From: Syntrophaceae bacterium
GTDB taxonomy: Bacteria; Desulfobacterota; Syntrophia; Syntrophales; Smithellaceae
Assembly: GCA_018436925.1 (NCBI GenBank)
Contig: JAHDKI010000017.1
Coordinates: forward strand, 88,288 to 152,287
Direction of reading: 5' to 3'
Length of the DNA stretch: 64,000 nucleotides
Within the stretch, counting starts at the first letter, position 1. The number at the start of each line of letters is the position of its first letter. Both the position numbers and the translations under genes were made by a program. The notes beneath the pieces were generated by a model. It did not search any database. It was not told the origin of the DNA and was given only the letters and a program-made list of their open reading frames with translations. Shown in pieces: positions 29,088-39,098 of this stretch.

Positions 29088-29873
29088 TTATGTTTCGGTT
29101 TCCGCCGCCCAGAGCGCGGCGCCGTAAGCGGCAGTCAATCTGGGTTTTTCGGGAACGAATATTTTCACCTTCAGTGTCTCGCCGATGGCGCGGGCAAGGC
29201 CTTCATCCTCGCCGCCGCCGCCCGCAAGCACCACATCCGGCTCCATTTTGAGGCGTTTGACGAGCATGCCGACTTTTGCCGCCATCGCCTTGTGAACGCC
29301 CGCCAGAATGTCGGCGGGCTTTGCGCCTTCGGCAATGCGGGAGATGGTTTCCGATTCGGCGAACACGGCGCAATTGGTGGAAAATTCCACGGGATGTTCC
29401 GACTGTATCGACAGCGGTCCGATTTCATCAAGCGGCACATGCAGAATCCGGGAAATGACCTGCAAAAAACGTCCCGACCCGGTGGCGCACTTTTCGCTCA
29501 TTAAAAAGTCGGCAATCCGTCCCGGGGGCGAAATTCTTGCCGCCTTGGTGAATTGTCCGCCGATGTCGATGATCGTCCTCGCGGAAGGAAAAAGAAAGAA
29601 ACAGCCTCTTGCCTGGCAGGAAATGTCGGAGACCTGGCGGCCGGGAAAAGGCGAGCTCTCCGCGCCCAGACCGGTTGCGACCAGGCCGGCAAGCGAGCCG
29701 AAGTCGATGCCGGCCTGCGCCAGAACATCCTGCATCACTTTTTGCGCGCCGGCTTTGTAATGTCCGCCGGAGGGGATAAGAGAAGACGCGATGATCCGTT
29801 CGCCGCGAATCAAAACCGCCTTGATGGACACAGACCCCATATCGAGTCCGGCGTAATATTTGTCGTCATTCAT
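29088..29873 (-). CDS. BadF/BadG/BcrA/BcrD-type ATPase subunit of a benzoyl-CoA-reductase-like enzyme
   Basis: ASKHA phosphate-1 loop GLDMGSVSIKAV. [4Fe-4S]-bridging Cys pair in MSEKCATGSGRF and TNCAVFAESE. Start may be ATG 29873 or TTG 29885. Confidence 0.8.
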   Translation of the reverse strand: MNDDKYYAGLDMGSVSIKAVLIRGERIIASSLIPSGGHYKAGAQKVMQDVLAQAGIDFGSLAGLVATGLGAESSPFPGRQVSDISCQARGCFFLFPSARTIIDIGGQFTKAARISPPGRIADFLMSEKCATGSGRFLQVISRILHVPLDEIGPLSIQSEHPVEFSTNCAVFAESETISRIAEGAKPADILAGVHKAMAAKVGMLVKRLKMEPDVVLAGGGGEDEGLARAIGETLKVKIFVPEKPRLTAAYGAALWAAETET

Positions 29874-29894
29874 GTCGGAATCCAAAAGGCTTCT

Positions 29895-30725
29895 CTAAGT
29901 GAAAAAAGTCACGTCCTCTTTTTTGCGTTCTTTGGCCGGTCGAACACCGCGGTCGTAAAAATCCTTTCCGACGAGCGCCGCGCCCAGCGCGCCGGTAATA
30001 AACGGCTCGGGCGGCGTGAGGACGTCAAAACCCACCTTGCCGGCAATCGCCTTGATCAATCCTTTATTTTTCGCGCCGCCGCCTGTCACCACGACATCTT
30101 TCTCAATGCCCAGATGCCGCGTCATGTTCACGACGCGCGAGGCGATGGCTTCATGAAGCCCCGCGACGATTTGCGCCACGTCCGCGCCTTCGGCAAGCCT
30201 TGATGTGACTTCATGCTCGGCAAACACCGTGCACATGCTGGAAATCTGAACAAAGCCGTCGGCCCGGGACGCGATGTCGCCCATATCGACCAGGTTGATG
30301 CCCAGCGTTTCGGCGATGACTTCGAGAAACCGGCCGGTTCCCGCCGCGCATTTGTCATTCATGACGAAGTTGGCGACTTTGCCGTCGGCGTCGAGCTTGA
30401 TGCCTTTGGAATCCTGTCCGCCGATATCGATGATGATTTTCGCGGAGGGGAACAAGGCGCGGATGCCGCGCGCGTGGCAGGTGATTTCGGTAATCTGCTT
30501 GTCGGCAAACGGAACGTTGATGCGTCCGTAGCCGGTGGCGACGATAAACCGGAGTTGGTCGATGGACAACCCCGCTTGGGAAAGCGTTTCATCCATCACG
30601 GCCAGCGCCAGATGCCGGTGCTCCGCGCCGGTGGGCCCGATGTGCGAAGCGAGTATTTGTTCTTTTTCATCGGCGATGACGACTTTCGTCATCGTGGAGC
30701 CGATATCGATTCCGCCAAACGGCAT
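29895..30725 (-). CDS. second, distinct BadF/BadG/BcrA/BcrD-type ATPase subunit
   Basis: GIDIGSTMTKVV, MNDKCAAGTGRF and SMCTVFAEHE. Confidence 0.85.
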   Translation of the reverse strand: MPFGGIDIGSTMTKVVIADEKEQILASHIGPTGAEHRHLALAVMDETLSQAGLSIDQLRFIVATGYGRINVPFADKQITEITCHARGIRALFPSAKIIIDIGGQDSKGIKLDADGKVANFVMNDKCAAGTGRFLEVIAETLGINLVDMGDIASRADGFVQISSMCTVFAEHEVTSRLAEGADVAQIVAGLHEAIASRVVNMTRHLGIEKDVVVTGGGAKNKGLIKAIAGKVGFDVLTPPEPFITGALGAALVGKDFYDRGVRPAKERKKEDVTFFT

Positions 30726-30751
30726 AAAACACCTTCGGTGTGTTAGGGGTG

Positions 30752-30779
30752 AGGCGTCAGGAGTCAGGCGTCAGGCGTT
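30752..30779. repeat. four tandem heptamers inside the intercistronic gap
   Basis: AGGCGTC AGGAGTC AGGCGTC AGGCGTT read directly from the plus strand. Confidence 0.7.
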
Positions 30780-30814
30780 TCTAGTCCTGACGTTTTGCGC
30801 TTGACTCTTTGCGC

Positions 30815-32131
30815 CTAACGCCTCCCGCTCCTGGCCTGAAGCGCTTCGATAAACGCGCCGATTTGCGCCTTCCACTGCGCTTCCGAATAATCCCGCAGAT
30901 CCACCATATCGGAGACGAGCTGCATCATCGGCAGATCGCAGTATTTCCCCAGCTCGCTTTTGATATGCGTCTGGCCGATGGTGGTCGCGCGGCAGGACCG
31001 GCAGGCGTGAAACACCACGCCGTCGATTTGATAGTCCTCGATCATGCCCAGCAGTTTTTCCACGGTGGGATTGCCGCTGCGCGCCCGGGCTTTTTCATGG
31101 TAGGCCGTGTAGCGCAAAAACGCGCGCCAGGCCAGATAATCGACCGGGTCTTTGACGTGCGAAGGCACTTCGACCGGATCGAATCCGCGATAGACGTTTT
31201 CGATCACAAACACCGCGCCGAAACTTTCAAAGTAATTGAAGATCCACAGCGTATGCCACGGCGGAAGTCCGCCGCCGTAAAGAATGCGGTATTTTTCGTC
31301 CGGGATCACGCCGATTTTGTGATCGACTTTATACTTCACTTCGTCATAGAGCTTCTGATAGAAGTCCACGGCGATCTGGGTGCCGGCATAGTAGTGGCCC
31401 GCCACCATGATGCTGAAGTGATCCTGCGACGGCATGGGGGAAGGAACCGCCACGCGCAGACGGTCGATGTCGTACCATAGCTGCCAGGCTTTGTCGCCCA
31501 AACGGATGCACTCCCAGAGGCGTTCCTTGTCCAGTTTCTTTCCGGTTTGCGCCTCCAGAAAGTCGATCAGTCCCTGCACCTGGTCGCGTTGATATTGAAT
31601 GTAGTAGTCCCGGACTTCGTTCAAATCGTCCTGAGGCGGCGGCGCGACGACATCCATGCCGAATGTGGGCACATCAAGATAGCGGCTCGCGGCCTGATAC
31701 CACTTGAAACGCGGATCGCACACCGCCGAAGAGCCCAGCATCATGTCGGGGGCGGGCATGCCGCCGTCCGGCGAGTTGTCGGGAATGCGCCCCAGCTCCT
31801 TGCGCAGGCTGTCGAATCCCAGGCCGATGCGGGCATAGCTGCACAGCACTTGCGAGTAGCCGTCCGCTTCCGCCTTGAGCAGGAAGCGATCCATATCGCG
31901 CTTGGCGGCGCAAAGCCCGGCGTAGTTTTCCGTGGGCAGCGGAATGACGTCCATCGCTCGGATGACCTCGTCATATTGCGAGGCCACCATGAAGTAGGCC
32001 ACTTTTTTGCCGTTGGCCTTGGCCTCATGCGCGCTTTTATAGATGTTCTTGACCAGCGCGCGCACCTCGCGCGCCGTGTCCGTCCCCTTGACGGCCGTGG
32101 TTTTGGCCTGCTGTGTGGATTCCATTTTCAT
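30815..32131 (-). CDS. benzoyl-CoA reductase B/O-type subunit-like protein (2-hydroxyacyl-CoA dehydratase fold)
   Basis: 438 aa. Family-level resemblance to BcrB/BadE/BzdO (KKVAYFMVASQYDEVIRAMDVIPL..., FHACRSCRATTIGQ). Confidence 0.75.
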   Translation of the reverse strand: MKMESTQQAKTTAVKGTDTAREVRALVKNIYKSAHEAKANGKKVAYFMVASQYDEVIRAMDVIPLPTENYAGLCAAKRDMDRFLLKAEADGYSQVLCSYARIGLGFDSLRKELGRIPDNSPDGGMPAPDMMLGSSAVCDPRFKWYQAASRYLDVPTFGMDVVAPPPQDDLNEVRDYYIQYQRDQVQGLIDFLEAQTGKKLDKERLWECIRLGDKAWQLWYDIDRLRVAVPSPMPSQDHFSIMVAGHYYAGTQIAVDFYQKLYDEVKYKVDHKIGVIPDEKYRILYGGGLPPWHTLWIFNYFESFGAVFVIENVYRGFDPVEVPSHVKDPVDYLAWRAFLRYTAYHEKARARSGNPTVEKLLGMIEDYQIDGVVFHACRSCRATTIGQTHIKSELGKYCDLPMMQLVSDMVDLRDYSEAQWKAQIGAFIEALQARSGRR

Positions 32132-32135
32132 CTCC

Positions 32136-33275
32136 CTACAAAATCATTTCCAGAAACGCTTGAATGCGCGTTCTGAGCTGTCCCATCGTCGATGTGGAGT
32201 AGTCGTCCTCGATCATTAAGACCGGCAGCTTCAGGCCGTTTAGATAGTCCTTCAGGTCCGGTCCTTCGAGCTCGCAGGTGTCGCAGTAGCGGACAATGTA
32301 GAAAATCGCTCCGTCGGCTTTCCAGTCCGCCATGAACTGCCGGATATAGCCGAAGCGGTTTTCCAGATCGGTCTGACGATCGCCCGCCTGGGGTTTAAGG
32401 GTTCGCGGACAGTGCGTGCAGATATAGCGCCGTGCCAGCGCCTCCAGCGGATCACCCGTTTCCGGGACATCTTCCCAGAAAAACCGCGATCCCGTGCACA
32501 GATCATCCATCACGACATGCGCGCCGCACTCTTCGACCAGTTGAATAAAGGCGGCATCGTCAATTTCGTTGCCCCAGATAAAGATGCGCGGCAGACCGTC
32601 GGGGTTCGGCGCCGGCCGGTTTTTCACCTCCTGAATAAAAGCCGAGACAAGCTCAATATGCTCGTCGGCGGGAATGCCCATTCCGGCCACCAACACTTTG
32701 GTGATTTCCGTTCCCGAGACGCGCGGCGGATTTTCTTTTCTCAGAGCATAAAGCTCGCGAAGCAGCTCCCGGCGTCGGTTGTACAGCGAGACGGCATCGC
32801 GAAGTTTGGCCGGGTCCATTTTCCTGCCGGAAAAGTCTTCCAGCCGCTTGATGAAGTATTCCAGCTCTTTGCGGTAAAACGCGTCGGATGACGGTCCCAG
32901 CATGTGCGGAACATTGATCATATGATTAAACGGCGACGGTTTGTTCTGATGCCAGATATGGTACATCCGCTCGATTGTGTCGCAGCTGTGCGGCGCGACA
33001 AAGCCGTCCAGAAAATCATACTCGCCCTTGAGCGCGAGGTTAAAGCAGCTGCGGGCAAACGGACAGGCCATCGGCTCCAAAAGCGCGTCCGCCTCGTCGA
33101 TGGGGTCGTTTTGCGACCCCTGGATGCGGTAGGGAAGCATATCCATTGCCGTGATAATTTCGTCGGGGACAAAGCAGCAGAAATACCCGATGACTTTTTT
33201 CCCCGATTCGCGCAATTTGCGGGCGCGCTCTCCCCGATTCTGATAAAGGCCGTCGATTTTATCCAAGACGCTCAT
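32136..33275 (-). CDS. benzoyl-CoA reductase C/N-type subunit-like protein (2-hydroxyacyl-CoA dehydratase fold)
   Basis: 379 aa. KKVIGYFCCFVPDEIITAMDMLPYRI, HSCDTIERM, YIVRYCDTCE. Confidence 0.75.
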   Translation of the reverse strand: MSVLDKIDGLYQNRGERARKLRESGKKVIGYFCCFVPDEIITAMDMLPYRIQGSQNDPIDEADALLEPMACPFARSCFNLALKGEYDFLDGFVAPHSCDTIERMYHIWHQNKPSPFNHMINVPHMLGPSSDAFYRKELEYFIKRLEDFSGRKMDPAKLRDAVSLYNRRRELLRELYALRKENPPRVSGTEITKVLVAGMGIPADEHIELVSAFIQEVKNRPAPNPDGLPRIFIWGNEIDDAAFIQLVEECGAHVVMDDLCTGSRFFWEDVPETGDPLEALARRYICTHCPRTLKPQAGDRQTDLENRFGYIRQFMADWKADGAIFYIVRYCDTCELEGPDLKDYLNGLKLPVLMIEDDYSTSTMGQLRTRIQAFLEMIL

Positions 33276-33325: not shown

Positions 33326-33409
33326 GGCAAAGACGCTCGAAAAGCAAGCGGGTTTTTCTTTAAAACGTCTTGCCTTGATGAACGAAAGGCGAAATGATAT
33401 GGTCCGCGC

Positions 33410-34198
33410 ATGAAAAAGACGATCATTCAAATTTACGAAATTCAAAAACCGAAAGAAGCCGAAGCGCTTGCCGCGGCCGGCGTTGATCATATCGGCAGCG
33501 TGCTTCTGGATACCGACAAGCGGAAGAACGCCGCGATCCGCAAAACCGTTTTGGCGGCCCGGCAAGCCGGAGCCAAAAGCGGCGTGATTCCGTTGTTTAA
33601 CGATCCGGCCCGGATTTTCGCTGCGCTGGAGTATTACGAACCGGATTTTGTGCACCTTTGCGATACGCTTGCCCCCTACCCCGACCGCCGGAAGGCGGTG
33701 GTGCGCGATTTCGACGCGTTTTTGTCTTTGCAAATCGACATTAAAGACCGTTTTCCGCGGATTGAAATCATGCGGTCCCTGTCCGTGCCCCGGCCCGGCC
33801 GTCCGGATCGGCAGGAGGTTGAAAAGATCCTGCTGGATTTTGCCGAACGCTTCTCGCCTTTTTCCGATTACTTTCTTCTGGACACGCTGCTCGACGGCGA
33901 CGCTCAGCCTGTTGACGGTTTCGTCGGCGTCACGGGGGAAACCTGCGATTGGGAAATGGCCAAAAGCGTGATCGAAAAAAGCCGCATTCCCGTGATTCTG
34001 GCGGGAGGTCTCTCGCCGGAAAATGTCTTTGAAGCCATCACCGCCGTGCGTCCGGCCGGCGTGGACAGCTGCACGAAAACCAACGCCGTGGATCCATCGG
34101 GACAACCCGTGAGGTTTAAAAAGGATATGAAGAGAGTCGAAAAGTTCATCGCGGAAGTCCGCCGCGGTGATGCCTTTTTTTCCGGAGTCGCCTCTTGA
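33410..34198 (+). CDS. phosphoribosylanthranilate-isomerase (TrpF)-like TIM-barrel protein, atypically long, not in a trp context
   Basis: GVTGETCDWEMAK...PVILAGGLSPENV...AGVDSCTKTN...KDMKRVEKFI resembles the TrpF C-terminal half. 262 aa. Confidence 0.6.
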   Translation: MKKTIIQIYEIQKPKEAEALAAAGVDHIGSVLLDTDKRKNAAIRKTVLAARQAGAKSGVIPLFNDPARIFAALEYYEPDFVHLCDTLAPYPDRRKAVVRDFDAFLSLQIDIKDRFPRIEIMRSLSVPRPGRPDRQEVEKILLDFAERFSPFSDYFLLDTLLDGDAQPVDGFVGVTGETCDWEMAKSVIEKSRIPVILAGGLSPENVFEAITAVRPAGVDSCTKTNAVDPSGQPVRFKKDMKRVEKFIAEVRRGDAFFSGVAS

Positions 34199-34530
34199 CG
34201 CCGTCGAAAGCCTTTCAGAGAGAAGCCCAAACGCTTGACGCGATGATCGCGCTGTACTGCCGCGGACGCCATTCCATGCCGGAAGGAGAGCTTTGCTATT
34301 CCTGCCGCGAACTTCTAACGTACGCGCTATCGCGGCTGGACAAGTGCCCTTTCGGAGACAACAAACCCGCCTGCTCGGCCTGCCCCGTGCATTGCTACAA
34401 ACCGGCGCGCCGTAAGGACATCCAGGAGGTCATGCGTTACTCAGGCCCCCGGATGATGCGTTCGCACCCGCTTTTGGCCATTCGTCATCTTTTAAAAAAA
34501 CTGAAAACGTCCAAGGTGGAAACACCATGA
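34195..34530 (+). CDS. YgbA / nitrous-oxide-stimulated-promoter family Cys-rich protein
   Basis: REAQTLDAMIALYC...CPFGDNKPACSACPVHCYKPARRKDIQEVMRYSGPRMMRSHPLLAIRHL is near-colinear with my recollection of E. coli YgbA. The TTG start overlaps the upstream TGA (TTGA). Confidence 0.8.
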   Translation: MTPSKAFQREAQTLDAMIALYCRGRHSMPEGELCYSCRELLTYALSRLDKCPFGDNKPACSACPVHCYKPARRKDIQEVMRYSGPRMMRSHPLLAIRHLLKKLKTSKVETP

Positions 34531-35642
34531 AGATCGCGATTATCGGAGCGGGTCCGGCCGGACTTTATGCGGCGCTTGCCGCGGCGGAGAAAGGAATGAC
34601 CGCGGACCTTTATGAAAAACGTCGGGTCGGAGAGGGCATTGTTTGCGGCGAGTGCATCTTCGACTCGCTTCGACTTATGAAAAAACCCGGCGTCGGCCTT
34701 TTGCGCCCTGTGGATGAAATCATTCTTCAGGGCAGGAAACCCTATCCGTTCAGCCTCTCCCGCCACCGTCCGCTGTGGATGCTCGACCGCAAAACCTGGC
34801 AGCGGGATCTCGCGCGGCGGGCGGTTGACAAAGGGGTTTCGCTCTTCGAGCGCTGTAAAATAACGTCCGATCGCTTGCGGAGCATGCACAACGAGTATGC
34901 ATGGATCATCGACGCCAGCGGCGCGCCGTCGGTGACGTCAAGGCATTATGGCTTTGCCGCCGAGTACTTCAAAGATTTTCTTGTGGCCCATCAGGTTGTC
35001 CTCGCAGGCGATTTCAGCGCTCTCTGGCCGCGGATCAAGGTCGCTTTTTTCGAAGCCTGGCCTTCGTCAAACCAGCCCGCTTATTACTGGGTTTTCCCCA
35101 AGGATGAAAAGACCGCCAATGTCGGCGTGGTCTGCGCTGCGCGAAAACGCCTGGATCAAAAAACGGTCAACTTAAAACGCCGGCTTTCCGAGGTGCTCAA
35201 GCGTGAAGGGTTGACGGAGACGGCCGTTTTGGAGACGGGCGGCGGGATTGCCGCCGGACGGGTTCTGCCGCGCCTGGTTTATGGCAACATTCTGCTTTGC
35301 GGAGACGCGGCGGGGCTGACCTCGCCGTTGCACGGCGGCGGGATCGATCTGGCGTGTTTAAGCGGCGTCTTAGCCGTCGAGGCCGTGCGGACGGGCGGTT
35401 CGGGCGTCGCGGCCTATGAAAAAACCGTCAAGGGGTACCTGCGGGAGCGAACGGCGCTGGAAGGCGTCACGATCGGCAAAATGCGTCGAATGACCTTCAA
35501 GCAATTCGACCGGCTCTTGGCCGGCGTGACCGCCAAAAGCCGACGGACTCGTTTGATCACTGGTTTAAAGAATCTCGATATGCTCCTTACCACGCTTCAA
35601 TGGTTCGGCACGACAAAGAAAAGTCTCGACTGGCCGGATTGA
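34527..35642 (+). CDS. FAD-dependent oxidoreductase, geranylgeranyl-reductase-like
   Basis: MKIAIIGAGPAGLYAALAAAEKG dinucleotide fold and CGDAAGLTSPLHGGGI. ATGA overlap with the upstream gene. Confidence 0.8.
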   Translation: MKIAIIGAGPAGLYAALAAAEKGMTADLYEKRRVGEGIVCGECIFDSLRLMKKPGVGLLRPVDEIILQGRKPYPFSLSRHRPLWMLDRKTWQRDLARRAVDKGVSLFERCKITSDRLRSMHNEYAWIIDASGAPSVTSRHYGFAAEYFKDFLVAHQVVLAGDFSALWPRIKVAFFEAWPSSNQPAYYWVFPKDEKTANVGVVCAARKRLDQKTVNLKRRLSEVLKREGLTETAVLETGGGIAAGRVLPRLVYGNILLCGDAAGLTSPLHGGGIDLACLSGVLAVEAVRTGGSGVAAYEKTVKGYLRERTALEGVTIGKMRRMTFKQFDRLLAGVTAKSRRTRLITGLKNLDMLLTTLQWFGTTKKSLDWPD

Positions 35643-35693: not shown

Positions 35694-36065
35694 TCAGGCG
35701 GACAAGACGGCGTGAATTTTTTCGATCAGTTCATCGAGCTTGACCGGCTTGGCGATTAAGGCTTTGCCGCTTGAGATGCCGGCGCCTCTTTTGATGTCGT
35801 CCTCGTTGATCATGGCCGTGATAAAGATGATCGGAATAGAACGCGTGGCGGGATCCTCCGACAGAGCCCGGGCCACTTCGGTGCCGTACATGCCGGGCAT
35901 CATCATATCGAGCAGAATGATATCCGGGTTTTCGGCTTTGGCCAGCCGCATGCCTTCATCGCCCCGCGTCGCCGTCAGGACCTCGAAATCCGTCTTGGCC
36001 TCGAGACTCTTTTTCATGGCCCGGCAAAAAAATTCCTCATCGTCGATAATGAGCAGCTTTTTCAT
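35694..36065 (-). CDS. single-domain response regulator (CheY-like)
   Basis: LLIIDDEE, IILLDMMMPGM, KPVK. ATGA overlap with the upstream kinase. Confidence 0.9.
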   Translation of the reverse strand: MKKLLIIDDEEFFCRAMKKSLEAKTDFEVLTATRGDEGMRLAKAENPDIILLDMMMPGMYGTEVARALSEDPATRSIPIIFITAMINEDDIKRGAGISSGKALIAKPVKLDELIEKIHAVLSA

Positions 36066-37795
36066 GACGTCCTCCCTGTATGTGCATGATGATGGTGATT
36101 TGCGGCGGATTCGGCAGGCAAACTGAAGAAGAAGGAGGCGCCTCCCTCTTCATTATTTTCCGCCCAGATGTCGCCGCCGTGATCTTTAATGATTCCGTAG
36201 GAAATGGAAAGCCCCAGTCCGGTGCCTTTTCCCTGTTCTTTGGTGGTGAAGAAGGGGTTGAATATTTTCGACAGGTGTTCGCTTTTAATGCCGTCTCCCG
36301 TGTCGGCCACCATGACTTGGACTTGGCGGCGATGAGGGTCCCATCTCGTCGCGATTCGCAGGATTTTTTTCTCTTTGCCGGCCATGGCGCCCCGGGCGTT
36401 CGAAATCAGGTTCAGAATAACCTGCTCAATCTTTTTGCGATCCATGACCATGTCCGGCAGATTGTCGCCGTATTGAACATCGGTTTCGATTTGATCGATC
36501 ATGAATTGCGATGTGTGCAAAGTCATGATCTGGGCGATCACGCTGTTGATATTGACGGTGTCCATTTTCCTGTCGCTGACGCGCGATAGGTGCTTCAGGC
36601 CGTCGGCAATGGCGACGATGCGGTCGATCTGCGCCATGCAGATGTCGAGCTCTTCTGCGGCTTCCTTGGGCAGGGCGTCCATTTCCCGCAGGATCTGCAA
36701 TTCCAGAGAGATAATATTCAGTGGATTCAGAATTTCGTGGGCGACGCCGGCGGATAATTGGCCGATGGCGGAGAGTTTTTCCGCCTGAAGCAAATGATCC
36801 CTTGCAGTTTGCAAGTCCTGCTCCGCTTTTTTCCGCGCCGTGATATCGCGGCCGACGAACATGATGCCGGTGGCCCGGCCGTTTTCATCGCGAATGAAAG
36901 AGGCCGTGGTTTCCTGCCAGAAGGTGCCGCCGTTTTTGTGGTACAGCTCCATTTCCAAAATTCGTTTTCGATTCGGGTCCGCTGGTCCGCTGCCGAACTC
37001 CCGCTCAATCTCTTCGGCGAATACCCTTTGCGCCATGGTCCAGGATTCGGGCGTGATGCTCTGGTCGATTGGAATCGCAAGGGCCTCTTCAGCCGTGTAG
37101 CCGGATGTCCGCACTTCGGACGGACTGAGGTAAGTGTACTGGAGATTCAAATCCATTGTCCAGATGCTGTCGTACATGTTTTCGACAATCATCCGCAGGC
37201 GATTTTCACTTTCCCGGAGCGCATCTTCCATCGCCTTTCGTTCAGTGATGTCCCGTGAAATGCTGCGAAATCCGACGGGGTTCCCCTCGGCATCCCCGGT
37301 CAGCGCGGCGGACAGCTCATAGATTCTCTTCGATCCGTCTTTGCGGATGCATTCCAGCTCGAAGGATTTGACGGGTGTTTTGGTTTTATAGATTTGAGTG
37401 AAAATGTCGCGCGTTTTTTTCGCGTTGACGTCGTCCTGGATTTTGCTGATGTTGCGGCCGATGAGTTCTTCCCTGGTGTATCCCAGATGTCCGCAGATCA
37501 CGTCATTGATAAAAGTGAATGTTCCGGAAAGGTCCACCTCGATATAGCCGTCTTGCAGGGTTTCTATAATGGTTCGATATCTCGCTTCGCTTTCCCGCAG
37601 CCTCGCCTCCGTCAGCCTGTAGGCGGATTCTGTTTTTTCCAGCCGATGAATTTTCTTGGTGAGCTCGGCGACTTCTTTTTTGAGATCCGCATTGGTTTTT
37701 GAAGGCGGGCGCATAGGGCCTTTCCTTGTTCCGGGTGTGGTTAGAGCAGCCGCGCGTGACTTTTTATCACCCGGAAGCATCCGGATGTGTTTCAA
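36062..37795 (-). CDS. PAS-domain sensor histidine kinase
   Basis: Coiled-coil plus two PAS segments. H-box GVAHEILNPLN, DTGDGI, GTGLGLS. Start is uncertain (TTG 37795, ATG 37780 or ATG 37714). Confidence 0.9.
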   Translation of the reverse strand: MKHIRMLPGDKKSRAAALTTPGTRKGPMRPPSKTNADLKKEVAELTKKIHRLEKTESAYRLTEARLRESEARYRTIIETLQDGYIEVDLSGTFTFINDVICGHLGYTREELIGRNISKIQDDVNAKKTRDIFTQIYKTKTPVKSFELECIRKDGSKRIYELSAALTGDAEGNPVGFRSISRDITERKAMEDALRESENRLRMIVENMYDSIWTMDLNLQYTYLSPSEVRTSGYTAEEALAIPIDQSITPESWTMAQRVFAEEIEREFGSGPADPNRKRILEMELYHKNGGTFWQETTASFIRDENGRATGIMFVGRDITARKKAEQDLQTARDHLLQAEKLSAIGQLSAGVAHEILNPLNIISLELQILREMDALPKEAAEELDICMAQIDRIVAIADGLKHLSRVSDRKMDTVNINSVIAQIMTLHTSQFMIDQIETDVQYGDNLPDMVMDRKKIEQVILNLISNARGAMAGKEKKILRIATRWDPHRRQVQVMVADTGDGIKSEHLSKIFNPFFTTKEQGKGTGLGLSISYGIIKDHGGDIWAENNEEGGASFFFSLPAESAANHHHHAHTGRTS

Positions 37796-37872: not shown

Positions 37873-38988
37873 TCAACCTTCCGCCGCAATCGTCAGCAGC
37901 ATCTGCGTCCAGGTGAGCCCCGCGCCGACAATCGACAAGGCCACGTAGTCTCCCGGCCGCAGTTCGTCCCAGTGCTGGCTTAAAACGGAAGGCGCGCCGG
38001 CGCAGCCGACATTTCCGTACTGGTCGACATTGAACCAGTGGTGCGCAGGCGCGATATTCGCCCGTTCAGCCGCCGTTTGCAGCACGCCGAGATTGGCCTG
38101 ATGGCCGATAAAGAAGATCCGGGTCGGGTCTGCATCCGGAATGAGCGCCAAGATGTTGCGCAGACCGTCGGTGGTTTTGCGGATCGCATACCCTTGCACG
38201 GCGTTGCCGTCCTGATTGAAATATCCCCATCGAGGCACCACCACCTTGTCCCACATGGTCGGTCGGGAATCCATCTCGCAGTCGGTAAAATACTTATTGG
38301 ACGGGATGGTCACCGACAGAATCGACGCGGTGGCGCAATCGCCGAAGAGCACGGCGGAGCGGCGATCGGAATAGTCGATGGTCGTCGTCGCGGCTTCAAT
38401 ATTCGTCACCAAGATATAAGGAGGCAATCTGTCCGGTTTGGTGGCCTCCAAATAGCGCATTTGCACTCCATAAGTGCCGCAGGCCGAATTGATGTCGAAA
38501 CAGGGCACGTCGATTCCCAGGTCCGCCGCCACGGTCGACGCCATGCAGGGCGTCAGAAACTGAGGCAGGGAGCTGCCGGAAATGACCATGCCGATGTCGG
38601 TCGCTTTGAGGCCCGCGCGCTCAAGCGCCATCCGCGCGGCGCGCCCGCCCATCTGAGCGTCGGTGTAAAGACGCACCGTATCCGTTTCCATCGGATTGGC
38701 ATTTTTCGTTTTTTCAAGATAATCCAAAGGAATGACCGTGCGGCGCTCTTCAATGCCGACGCGTTCCATAATCCAGTCCACCGTGGTGCCGATATTCAAG
38801 TCTTCCAGAAACTTATTGCAGATGACATTTTCGGGATGAAAATGGCCGATGCCATGTAAGTATACCATTCTATTGTAGAACTCCTTTTTGGTGTGCGCCG
38901 GCCTGCCGCCGGAAAGTGTGCGACTATAATGAATAGGCTCCCGTCTGTCAATCATTTTGAACAAATCCTTGACACTGGCGCGGTCCAT
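37873..38988 (-). CDS. ketoacyl-ACP synthase III (FabH)-family condensing enzyme
   Basis: Cys-His-Asn triad contexts CFDINSACGTYG, IGHQANLGV and YGNVGCAGAP. A possible 40-aa N-terminal extension; the alternative start is ATG 38868. Confidence 0.8.
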   Translation of the reverse strand: MDRASVKDLFKMIDRREPIHYSRTLSGGRPAHTKKEFYNRMVYLHGIGHFHPENVICNKFLEDLNIGTTVDWIMERVGIEERRTVIPLDYLEKTKNANPMETDTVRLYTDAQMGGRAARMALERAGLKATDIGMVISGSSLPQFLTPCMASTVAADLGIDVPCFDINSACGTYGVQMRYLEATKPDRLPPYILVTNIEAATTTIDYSDRRSAVLFGDCATASILSVTIPSNKYFTDCEMDSRPTMWDKVVVPRWGYFNQDGNAVQGYAIRKTTDGLRNILALIPDADPTRIFFIGHQANLGVLQTAAERANIAPAHHWFNVDQYGNVGCAGAPSVLSQHWDELRPGDYVALSIVGAGLTWTQMLLTIAAEG

Positions 38989-39022: not shown

Positions 39023-39098
39023 GGGGATGTAGCTCAGCTGGGAGAGCGCGGCGTTCGCAATGCCGAGGCCAGGGGTTCGATCCCCCTCATCTCCACCA
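39023..39098 (+). tRNA. tRNA-Ala (anticodon CGC), CCA encoded
   Basis: Manual fold. Acceptor GGGGATG/CATCTCC with the G3:U70 Ala identity pair, anticodon loop TTCGCAA, T arm AGGGG-TTCGATC-CCCCT. Confidence 0.95.

Follow-up and report, generated by a model that had tools for sequence, protein, structure and literature searches.

The PRAIL-YgbA-GGRL operon

What joins a TrpF-like barrel, a small cysteine-rich protein and a flavoprotein of the geranylgeranyl-reductase (GGR) type in a single bacterial operon? The question is raised by a stretch of 64,000 nucleotides (the window) on contig JAHDKI010000017.1 of a Syntrophaceae bacterium placed in the Smithellaceae. All coordinates below are those of the whole window. 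We call the 262-aa barrel PRAIL and the 371-aa GGR-type flavoprotein GGRL; the gene between them encodes a YgbA-family protein. An earlier examination of the window made without database searches (the sequence-only reading) had proposed an unrecognised three-component module. Comparison of gene content and order across genomes firmly shows that the persistent link is the pair PRAIL and GGRL, and that YgbA and a divergent benzoyl-CoA reductase (BCR)-like operon often accompany the pair but are dispensable. As a module it is both narrower and looser than had been supposed. The three genes are:

33410-34198, + strand: PRAIL, 262 aa, ATG start, (beta-alpha)8 barrel with the TrpF fold, member of a separate "QIYE" family
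34195-34530, + strand: YgbA_NO-family protein, 111 aa, TTG start
34527-35642, + strand: GGRL, 371 aa, ATG start, FAD-dependent oxidoreductase of the geranylgeranyl-reductase type

The start/stop overlaps that join the three open reading frames (ORFs) lie exactly where they had been placed, both in the ORF list and in the sequence. The PRAIL stop and the ygbA start share TTGA (34195-34198), and the ygbA stop and the GGRL start share ATGA (34527-34530). Each internal start has a Shine-Dalgarno-like sequence 7 nt to its 5′ side, GGAG (34184-34187) for ygbA and AGGTGG (34514-34519) for GGRL. No Shine-Dalgarno sequence was found in the window upstream of the PRAIL start at 33410. Pfam and NCBIfam scans bear out the family labels given to the proteins (PRAI-like, YgbA and GGR-type flavoprotein). 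The order and tight spacing of the genes are repeated in dozens of independent metagenome-assembled genomes (MAGs) at 57-74% protein identity, and the arrangement is therefore more than chance. By the evidence of sequence and synteny, the trio is a real and conserved operon, with the layout of genes that are co-transcribed and translationally coupled.

At 34146-34179, inside the 3′ end of the PRAIL gene and 16 nt before the ygbA start, there is a G+C-rich hairpin with TGCCTTTTTT after it. A generic scan found no more terminator-like sites in the region than expected by chance.

Gene order in other genomes

The window proteins were mapped onto 80 related loci. The Smithellaceae set was defined by barrel homologues of at least 59% identity and includes 31 loci with enough downstream sequence. 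The companions of PRAIL in these loci are:

GGRL within 4 kb of the PRAIL gene: 24/31 loci
YgbA near the PRAIL gene: 20/31 loci
YgbA and GGRL both near the PRAIL gene: 19/31 loci
GGRL directly after PRAIL, without YgbA: 5 loci
YgbA only near the PRAIL gene: 1 locus

The genes are spaced as closely in these loci as they are in the window. In two complete Smithellaceae chromosomes, genes for an MFS permease, two ATPases and two HGD-D proteins are divergent from PRAIL-YgbA-GGRL. A Syntrophaceae genus (g306) has a five-gene operon made up of a CrtI-family flavoprotein, PRAIL, DUF1499, YgbA and GGRL (L087:3784-8113, L122:2227-6616, L123:1708-7889), in which the CrtI-like stop overlaps the PRAIL start. 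Downstream of the operon comes a convergent MBL-fold gene, and one of two loci (L123) has a gene for a B12-binding radical SAM protein on the upstream side. In another genus (g6), PRAIL and GGRL are 2 kb apart, with three opposite-strand genes between them and no YgbA nearby. Look-ups centred on GGRL found PRAIL at most 3 kb away in all three queries, and a UbiE-like methyltransferase or UbiB adjoins GGRL in other loci. The PRAIL-GGRL link spans five genera, including cases without YgbA, with DUF1499 inserted, and with opposite-strand genes between the two. The PRAIL homologues of Desulfobacterales (46-51% identity) have no adjacent YgbA or GGRL and usually sit between guaA and efp.

The sequence-only reading had staked its proposal on the three genes being found together elsewhere, and they are, since a compact operon of all three recurs in other genomes. 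One part of the proposal that did not stand is that all three components belong to it of necessity. YgbA is missing from 5 of the 24 adjacent PRAIL-GGRL pairs, and from 6 of the 10 genomes in which ygbA is not beside the pair.

Co-occurrence was counted in 401 genomes of the phylum, with a cut-off of E ≤ 1e-60 for barrel orthologues, and in 191 Syntrophales genomes (65 genera). Across the 401 genomes, PRAIL was found in 25 and GGRL in four, all of which have PRAIL. YgbA was found in 65, at frequencies that do not differ significantly between PRAIL-positive (5/25) and PRAIL-negative (60/376) genomes. The Syntrophales sample holds PRAIL in 46 genomes, GGRL in 22 and both in 19. PRAIL is thus present in 19/22 genomes with GGRL vs 27/169 without it (Fisher 5.5e-11), and in 5/6 GGRL genera, with 15 PRAIL genera among the 65 (hypergeometric p 0.002); the significance of both values is overstated, because the tests ignore phylogenetic dependence. 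PRAIL and GGRL co-occur even where they are unlinked.

Several other genes recur around these loci. In Syntrophus-like genomes (L089:868-5175, L091:1-3815, L060, L079), PRAIL is divergent from an AP_endonuc_2 (xylose-isomerase-like) gene that is followed by cobU, cobT, cobS and cobD and presumably resembles the cobamide-remodelling CbiR. A FabH/KAS-III-like gene is convergent with GGRL, just 3′ of it, in L008, L037, L038, L043 and L005:10708-11694, and is also found in the window (37873-38988). A response-regulator and histidine-kinase pair (35694-37795) separates it from GGRL in the window. An ABM-domain gene and a DUF6016 gene recur downstream of GGRL, in 8 loci each.

PRAIL is a TrpF-fold protein distinct from TrpF

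The sequence-only reading had noted a TrpF-fold protein that, at 262 aa, is longer than canonical TrpF, with no other trp gene in the window, and both statements hold: the TrpF likeness of PRAIL is the only trace of a trp gene found within the window. The AlphaFold2 model of PRAIL (pLDDT 93.6) has the same (beta-alpha)8 fold as TrpF (EC 5.3.1.24; PF00697; PDB 4aaj, 1nsj, 1lbm). In a Foldseek search of the PDB, the top 10 matches were all TrpF structures (TMt 0.76-0.86), with GGGPS/PcrB, HisA and others well behind. The likeness is concentrated in the C-terminal part. An hhalign comparison of PRAIL with the TrpF of its own genome aligned residues 140-251 only, pairing FLLDT with ILVDT, GVTGETCDW with GGTGKTSDW and ILAGGL with ILSGGL. 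PRAIL keeps the TrpF-type phosphate-binding motifs (G-x-T-G...D-W, AGGL, GVD), and D158 aligns with the general-acid Asp of TrpF strand 6.

The differences are found in the catalytic residues and in the architecture. TrpF has KICG in strand 1, with the catalytic Cys, but PRAIL has QIYE (Tyr-Glu). In the ungapped comparison of IQIYEIQKPKEA (PRAIL) with VKICGITNPKDA (own TrpF), Tyr aligns at the catalytic Cys position, so we read the Cys as replaced by Tyr. The arginine of the TrpF SPR motif is not conserved in PRAIL. Unlike TrpF, PRAIL also carries a helical insertion of ~50 aa and three extra Cys, of which C84 and C221 are invariant and C179 nearly so, and its gene is outside the trp operon. 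Family alignments show invariant residues along the whole protein: Q7, Y9, E10, Q12, H82, C84, R122 and S123 in the N-terminal half, and D158, T159, G173, T175, G176, the AGG motif (G199, G200), D219, S220, C221, R235 and K238 in the C-terminal half.

Family scores agree with a remote relationship to TrpF. PF00697 (PRAI) matches PRAIL with 40.5 bits over residues 158-219 alone, in the C-terminal third, and all NCBIfam TrpF equivalogs fall far below their cut-offs (best, 61.2 bits; cut-off 215). The same 3.5-Mb genome (G000) has a canonical trpF on contig C25, with a full-length PRAI match of 141.7 bits. This gene lies between trpC and trpB in a trpD-trpC-trpF-trpB operon, and its product begins MIGVKICGITNPKDA. 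The sequence-only reading had allowed that the barrel might simply be the housekeeping isomerase. We rule this out, because the canonical trpF is in the trp operon on another contig and the catalytic Cys is gone from PRAIL, which also scores below the equivalog cut-off. The name "phosphoribosylanthranilate isomerase" given to PRAIL by the JGI pipeline is an annotation error. A prenyltransferase barrel of the GGGPS/PcrB type was considered owing to the GGR-type neighbour and is not favoured: its TMq is ~0.5 vs 0.65 for TrpF, and the motifs are TrpF-like.

When 1.84 billion representatives were searched exhaustively with a profile, only 90 PRAIL-like clusters came back at E ≤ 1e-30. The same search found wider "QIY" relatives of 217-240 aa without the helical insertion. 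All of these proteins are metagenomic and automatically named PRAI or hypothetical. Two distant TrpF-like relatives, P0494 (390 aa) and P0480 (321 aa), are fusions to a Maf nucleotide-pyrophosphatase or Smr domain, and short "QIY" members in L128 and L132 adjoin PfkB or GHMP kinase genes.

GGRL is a GGR-type flavoprotein with a CxxC motif

The best sequence match of GGRL in the PDB is the digeranylgeranylglycerophospholipid reductase of Thermoplasma (3oz2, E 4e-14). Invariant in 22 members are the GxGxxG motif (G7, G9, G12), C40-G-E-C43, Y186-x-W188-x-F190-P191 and G259-D-A-A-G-L, the last extended to GDAAGL-x-S-x-L-H-G-G-G-I-D. The FAD motif, the Cys, YxWxFP and GDAAGL are hallmarks of GGRs (3oz2, BchP/ChlP, MenJ; TIGR02032, PF22578), so GGRL shares the defining features of that group. 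The assignment of GGRL as a GxGxxG flavoprotein of the GGR type is upheld by its motifs, although it misses the cut-offs of the curated families. It is also shorter, at 371 aa, and has a second invariant Cys. C40 aligns with the catalytic Cys of 3oz2 (CGEG). C43 corresponds to Gly in that protein and creates a CxxC motif (34644-34655) without a counterpart in 3oz2, the sole GGR aligned. The motif hints at dithiol/disulfide chemistry beside the flavin.

Only 262 relatives of GGRL were found, and the named ones all belong to Smithellaceae, Syntrophaceae or Syntrophus. As far as its known sequences go, the GGRL clade is restricted to Syntrophales. This distribution and the tie to a TrpF-like gene set it apart from the GGRs linked to lipids, chlorophyll or quinones. 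GGRL resembles some archaeal GGRs in having a small Cys-rich protein encoded directly beside it (PMC10821996). The GGR of Methanosarcina requires a ferredoxin from its own locus, and several archaeal GGR paralogues adjoin ferredoxin-like genes (review PMC10821996). The neighbour of GGRL is YgbA, not a ferredoxin; with the archaeal arrangement as a precedent, we read YgbA as a possible redox partner.

In a further genus, g261 (G441, L113:4974-7000), GGRL is unlinked from PRAIL and lies directly 3′ of an MBL-fold gene. A 280-aa N-terminal fusion to GGRL (654 aa in all) appeared to be present there, but we rejected it: the long open frame is an artefact of high-GC DNA, and the MBL-fold gene is a separate neighbour.

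YgbA is a predicted helical protein with conserved Cys and His

The 111-aa protein matches PF11756 (YgbA_NO) over its full length with 142.9 bits (cut-off 25) and NF007714 with 129 bits (cut-off 88). It contains the signature CPFG..KPAC..CPVHCY..GPRM, as the sequence-only reading had said. The invariant "Cys6His2" pattern of the family falls into two groups, C-x3-H-x7-C-x2-C and C-x8-C-x2-C-x2-H-C, at alignment positions C22, H26, C34, C37, C51, C60, C63, H66 and C67, where the alignment numbering is one higher than that of the window protein after C51. Homologues in Vibrio, Nitrospirota, Verrucomicrobia, Phycisphaerae and others are 47-70% identical to the window copy across phyla (57% by BLASTP for the Vibrio homologue P0358). 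The gene is present as a single copy in the window's genome.

AlphaFold2 predicts a four-helix protein (pLDDT 87.6). We did not find a structural analogue of this model in the PDB (Foldseek best E 2.5), nor a solved structure among the sequence relatives of YgbA. Sampling of 20 ygbA loci in genomes of other families of the phylum showed no conserved neighbours. Thus, the idea that YgbA is a constant partner of flavoproteins was rejected. To our knowledge, this widespread family has no described biochemistry, and a translationally coupled flavoenzyme partner gives it a concrete entry point in vitro. In the literature consulted, ygbA is described only as an NsrR-regulated gene induced by nitric oxide (NO), and this only for enterobacteria (PMC2884951, PMC5320621). 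The window protein is a full-length member of the same family as the E. coli and Salmonella proteins (PF11756, NsrR regulon), with the same invariant Cys6His2 pattern. Unlike the single, NO-induced gene of enterobacteria, ygbA in the window is coupled to its neighbours inside an operon of enzymes.

A proposed small-molecule modification pathway

We propose that the operon encodes a small-molecule modification pathway with the barrel and the GGR-type reductase as its core and YgbA as an optional accessory, and we put the probability of this reading at roughly 0.4; the substrate class accounts for most of the doubt. PRAIL would bind a phosphate-bearing, probably phospho-sugar-type, substrate or head group. 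Its catalytic set would consist of Gln-Ile-Tyr-Glu in strand 1 and the retained Asp of strand 6; since this set differs from that of TrpF, PRAIL is not a phosphoribosylanthranilate isomerase. GGRL, with its catalytic Cys extended to CxxC, most likely saturates a C=C bond. The two enzymes may work on the same small molecule, for which an isoprenoid-bearing lipid, quinone or cofactor precursor is the most plausible candidate. As a helical and putatively metal-binding Cys6His2 protein, YgbA would probably supply GGRL with reducing equivalents or serve it as an electron or thiol relay. The substrate class, the order of the reactions and the role of YgbA are inferred. The isoprenoid flavour comes from the GGR motifs and from the genes that adjoin a few Syntrophaceae loci, namely CrtI-like, B12-radical-SAM, UbiE-like and UbiB genes.

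A number of observations count against this proposal. GGRL stays below the cut-offs of both TIGR02032 GG-red-SF (135.6 bits vs 158.8) and PF22578 (26.7 vs 27). PRAIL is missing from three GGRL genomes; of these assemblies, one is plainly incomplete and another borderline. Conversely, most lineages with PRAIL have no GGRL, among them Desulfobacterales and the families f121 and f122, and the PRAIL reaction therefore does not need GGRL. Six of the ten genomes that lack ygbA beside PRAIL and GGRL, all of them MAGs, have no YgbA anywhere. We found no ferredoxin traits in YgbA (CxxCxxCxxxCP, a Fer4 Pfam match or a ferredoxin fold). The isoprenoid-type neighbours are confined to few lineages, and the CrtI-like and PlsC-like genes of the window's own genome are on another contig. 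Finally, the co-occurrence statistics are inflated by shared ancestry, as stated above.

A more far-reaching version, which we regard as doubtful, makes the QIYE family a new enzyme with an undescribed TrpF-fold reaction, possibly an Amadori-type or related isomerisation, on a phosphorylated substrate other than phosphoribosylanthranilate (PRA). Syntrophales would then have recruited a CxxC GGR-type reductase and a YgbA metalloprotein, and the joint product would be a reduced lipid or cofactor, possibly of an isoprenoid or ribityl type, that is required together with the ATP-dependent BCR-like enzyme. On this version, a YgbA-family protein would also gain a biochemical role for the first time, as the redox partner of a flavoenzyme.

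The re-tooled TrpF barrel and the lineage-specific GGR-type reductase suggest a cofactor or lipid pathway that has gone unrecognised in the Smithellaceae and Syntrophaceae, uncultured or hard-to-grow syntrophs that are central to methanogenic hydrocarbon and fatty-acid degradation.

The control region and the BCR-like operon

Two features lie upstream of PRAIL:

29088-33275, - strand: BCR/HGD-type ATP-dependent Fe-S enzyme operon, with two HGD-D subunits and two BcrAD ATPases according to family scores
33375-33403, + strand: putative promoter of the trio, with a -35 box TTGATG (33375-33380), a 17-nt spacer containing TG (33395-33396) and a -10 box TATGGT (33398-33403)

An MFS permease gene is also among the divergent neighbours in the window. 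The sequence-only reading had described a 134-bp control region shared by the trio and the BCR-like operon. The gap is real and of that length, but what it holds appears to be two separately conserved, back-to-back promoters. Gaps between PRAIL and the BCR-like operon were aligned from 22 loci, and four conserved blocks were found. The blocks ATTATT.A-GT and A.AAAA.CAAG..G.TTTT correspond to the -10 and -35 of the minus-strand operon. CTTGATC and TGATATG precede PRAIL, with the ATG 6-7 nt later. The motif cTTGATc-N17-TGaTATG-N6/7-ATG is found upstream of PRAIL in essentially every Smithellaceae locus (the 60 nt before the gene in L007-L049), whatever the upstream gene, and is kept even where ABC-transporter or other genes replace the BCR-like operon. 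The blocks are conserved separately and the PRAIL pair is independent of the gene upstream; the "shared control region" therefore amounts to two independent promoters. A shared operator in the 134-bp gap was considered and rejected, since the aligned gaps contain no conserved sequence beyond two promoter-like blocks on each side. When the region was scanned for generic promoters and terminators, nothing rose above chance, and the only Rfam element found was a tRNA at 39023-39095.

In the window, the -10 box of the trio ends 7 nt before the ATG at 33410. Because of this geometry and the missing Shine-Dalgarno sequence, the trio mRNA is probably leaderless or near-leaderless, with the transcription start predicted from the position of the -10 box.

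The neighbouring operon suggests an alternative in which the trio supplies electrons to the BCR-like enzyme, with GGRL as a reductase dependent on NAD(P)H or thiols, YgbA as a small carrier, and PRAIL as a passenger or the maker of a cosubstrate. The BCR-like operon is divergent from PRAIL in 19/35 informative Smithellaceae loci, and this adjacency is seen only when GGRL is present (14/21 loci with GGRL vs 0/7 without). BCR-like orthologues of at least 73% identity are present in 13/191 Syntrophales genomes, and GGRL is found in 9 of these 13 vs 13/178 others (Fisher 3.5e-7; at the genus level 3/6, p 0.008). The co-occurrence includes two genera in which the genes are unlinked. No ferredoxin is encoded in the BCR-like operon itself.

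Clusters of the bzd type for benzoyl-CoA reductase carry genes for a BzdM/BzdV-type ferredoxin and ferredoxin reductase. These clusters are like the window in that the genes for a class-I-BCR-like enzyme adjoin those for a flavoprotein and a small Cys-rich protein. The genes of the window are instead divergent from the BCR-like operon, the flavoprotein is of the GGR type, the small protein is not a ferredoxin, and the association is found in only about half of the loci. GGRL retains the substrate-side motifs of a C=C reductase (YxWxFP and the catalytic Cys), and YgbA is not ferredoxin-like. A third of the Smithellaceae loci, and Syntrophaceae as well, have the trio but not the BCR-like operon. 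At the genome level, 13/22 GGRL genomes have no BCR-like orthologue and 4/13 BCR-like genomes have no GGRL. The trio and the BCR-like operon each have their own, separately conserved promoter, and electron supply leaves the stronger link between PRAIL and GGRL unexplained. We consider it unlikely that the trio is an electron donor to this enzyme, and whether the BCR-like operon shares the function of the trio is uncertain.

In several Smithellaceae, an IS200/IS605-type Y1 transposase gene (~167-189 aa) lies between the two HGD-D genes (L004:4215-4718; cluster c17 in L007, L019, L020, L038 and L049). It is absent from the window.

Inherited gene order and nucleotide chemistry as alternatives

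The pathway reading must also be weighed against the view that the genes are co-transcribed but functionally unrelated, with a lineage-specific order kept by descent in Syntrophales. Every trio locus does come from this one bacterial order, YgbA and PRAIL are each found independently elsewhere, and the genes are on different contigs in three genera (G116, G406, G424, G441). This view has difficulty with the tight start/stop coupling, which is kept at ~60% identity, and with the PRAIL-GGRL link, which persists across five genera and through rearrangements. Nor would it predict that PRAIL and GGRL co-occur even when unlinked. We give mere descent little credence.

A further alternative takes PRAIL alone as its starting point and places it in a pathway of N-ribosylamine phosphates or nucleotides, with salvage, house-cleaning or translation-linked modification as possible roles. 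In it, PRAIL would be an Amadori-type isomerase acting on a 5-phosphoribosyl-amine other than PRA, and GGRL would reduce the product in Syntrophales. The retained phosphate site and general-acid Asp of TrpF fit this chemistry. The gene directly after PRAIL is efp in 11 Desulfobacterales loci and likewise in a distant lineage. In some Smithella, and in a contig whose protein carries the NCBI label Candidatus Omnitrophota, PRAIL is followed by a DTW-domain (tRNA acp3U-type) gene. Members of the wider family adjoin kinase genes (PfkB or GHMP) or carry a fused Maf or Smr domain, but these fusions are in distant relatives and one of them is without the QIY motif. The synteny may be incidental, because the neighbours are heterogeneous and mostly housekeeping genes. 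Reduction of a ketoamine is not known for GGR-type enzymes. EpmA, the EF-P lysyl-transferase, is found in 175/191 Syntrophales regardless of PRAIL and in 9/10 genomes in which PRAIL adjoins efp, so PRAIL does not replace this known EF-P modification. On balance, the N-ribosylamine pathway seems improbable to us, and the modification pathway with PRAIL and GGRL at its core is still the reading that we prefer.

The adjacency to efp had also suggested PRAIL as a substitute for EpmA. This was rejected, as EpmA is nearly universal and is encoded beside efp in the window's own genome, where efp is followed by epmA (G000 C22:59027-60544; genX-type lysyl-transferase, 332.7 bits) and the EF-P loop is of the Lys type (KPGKGQA).

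The Desulfobacterales loci with PRAIL next to efp are L057, L059, L061, L066, L067, L076, L080, L081, L083, L085 and L086. PRAIL is immediately upstream of efp in L130 (3826-5189) and L131 as well. In L130, a QTMAN_N/GT1 glycosyltransferase gene and an ORF of 80 aa come before PRAIL.

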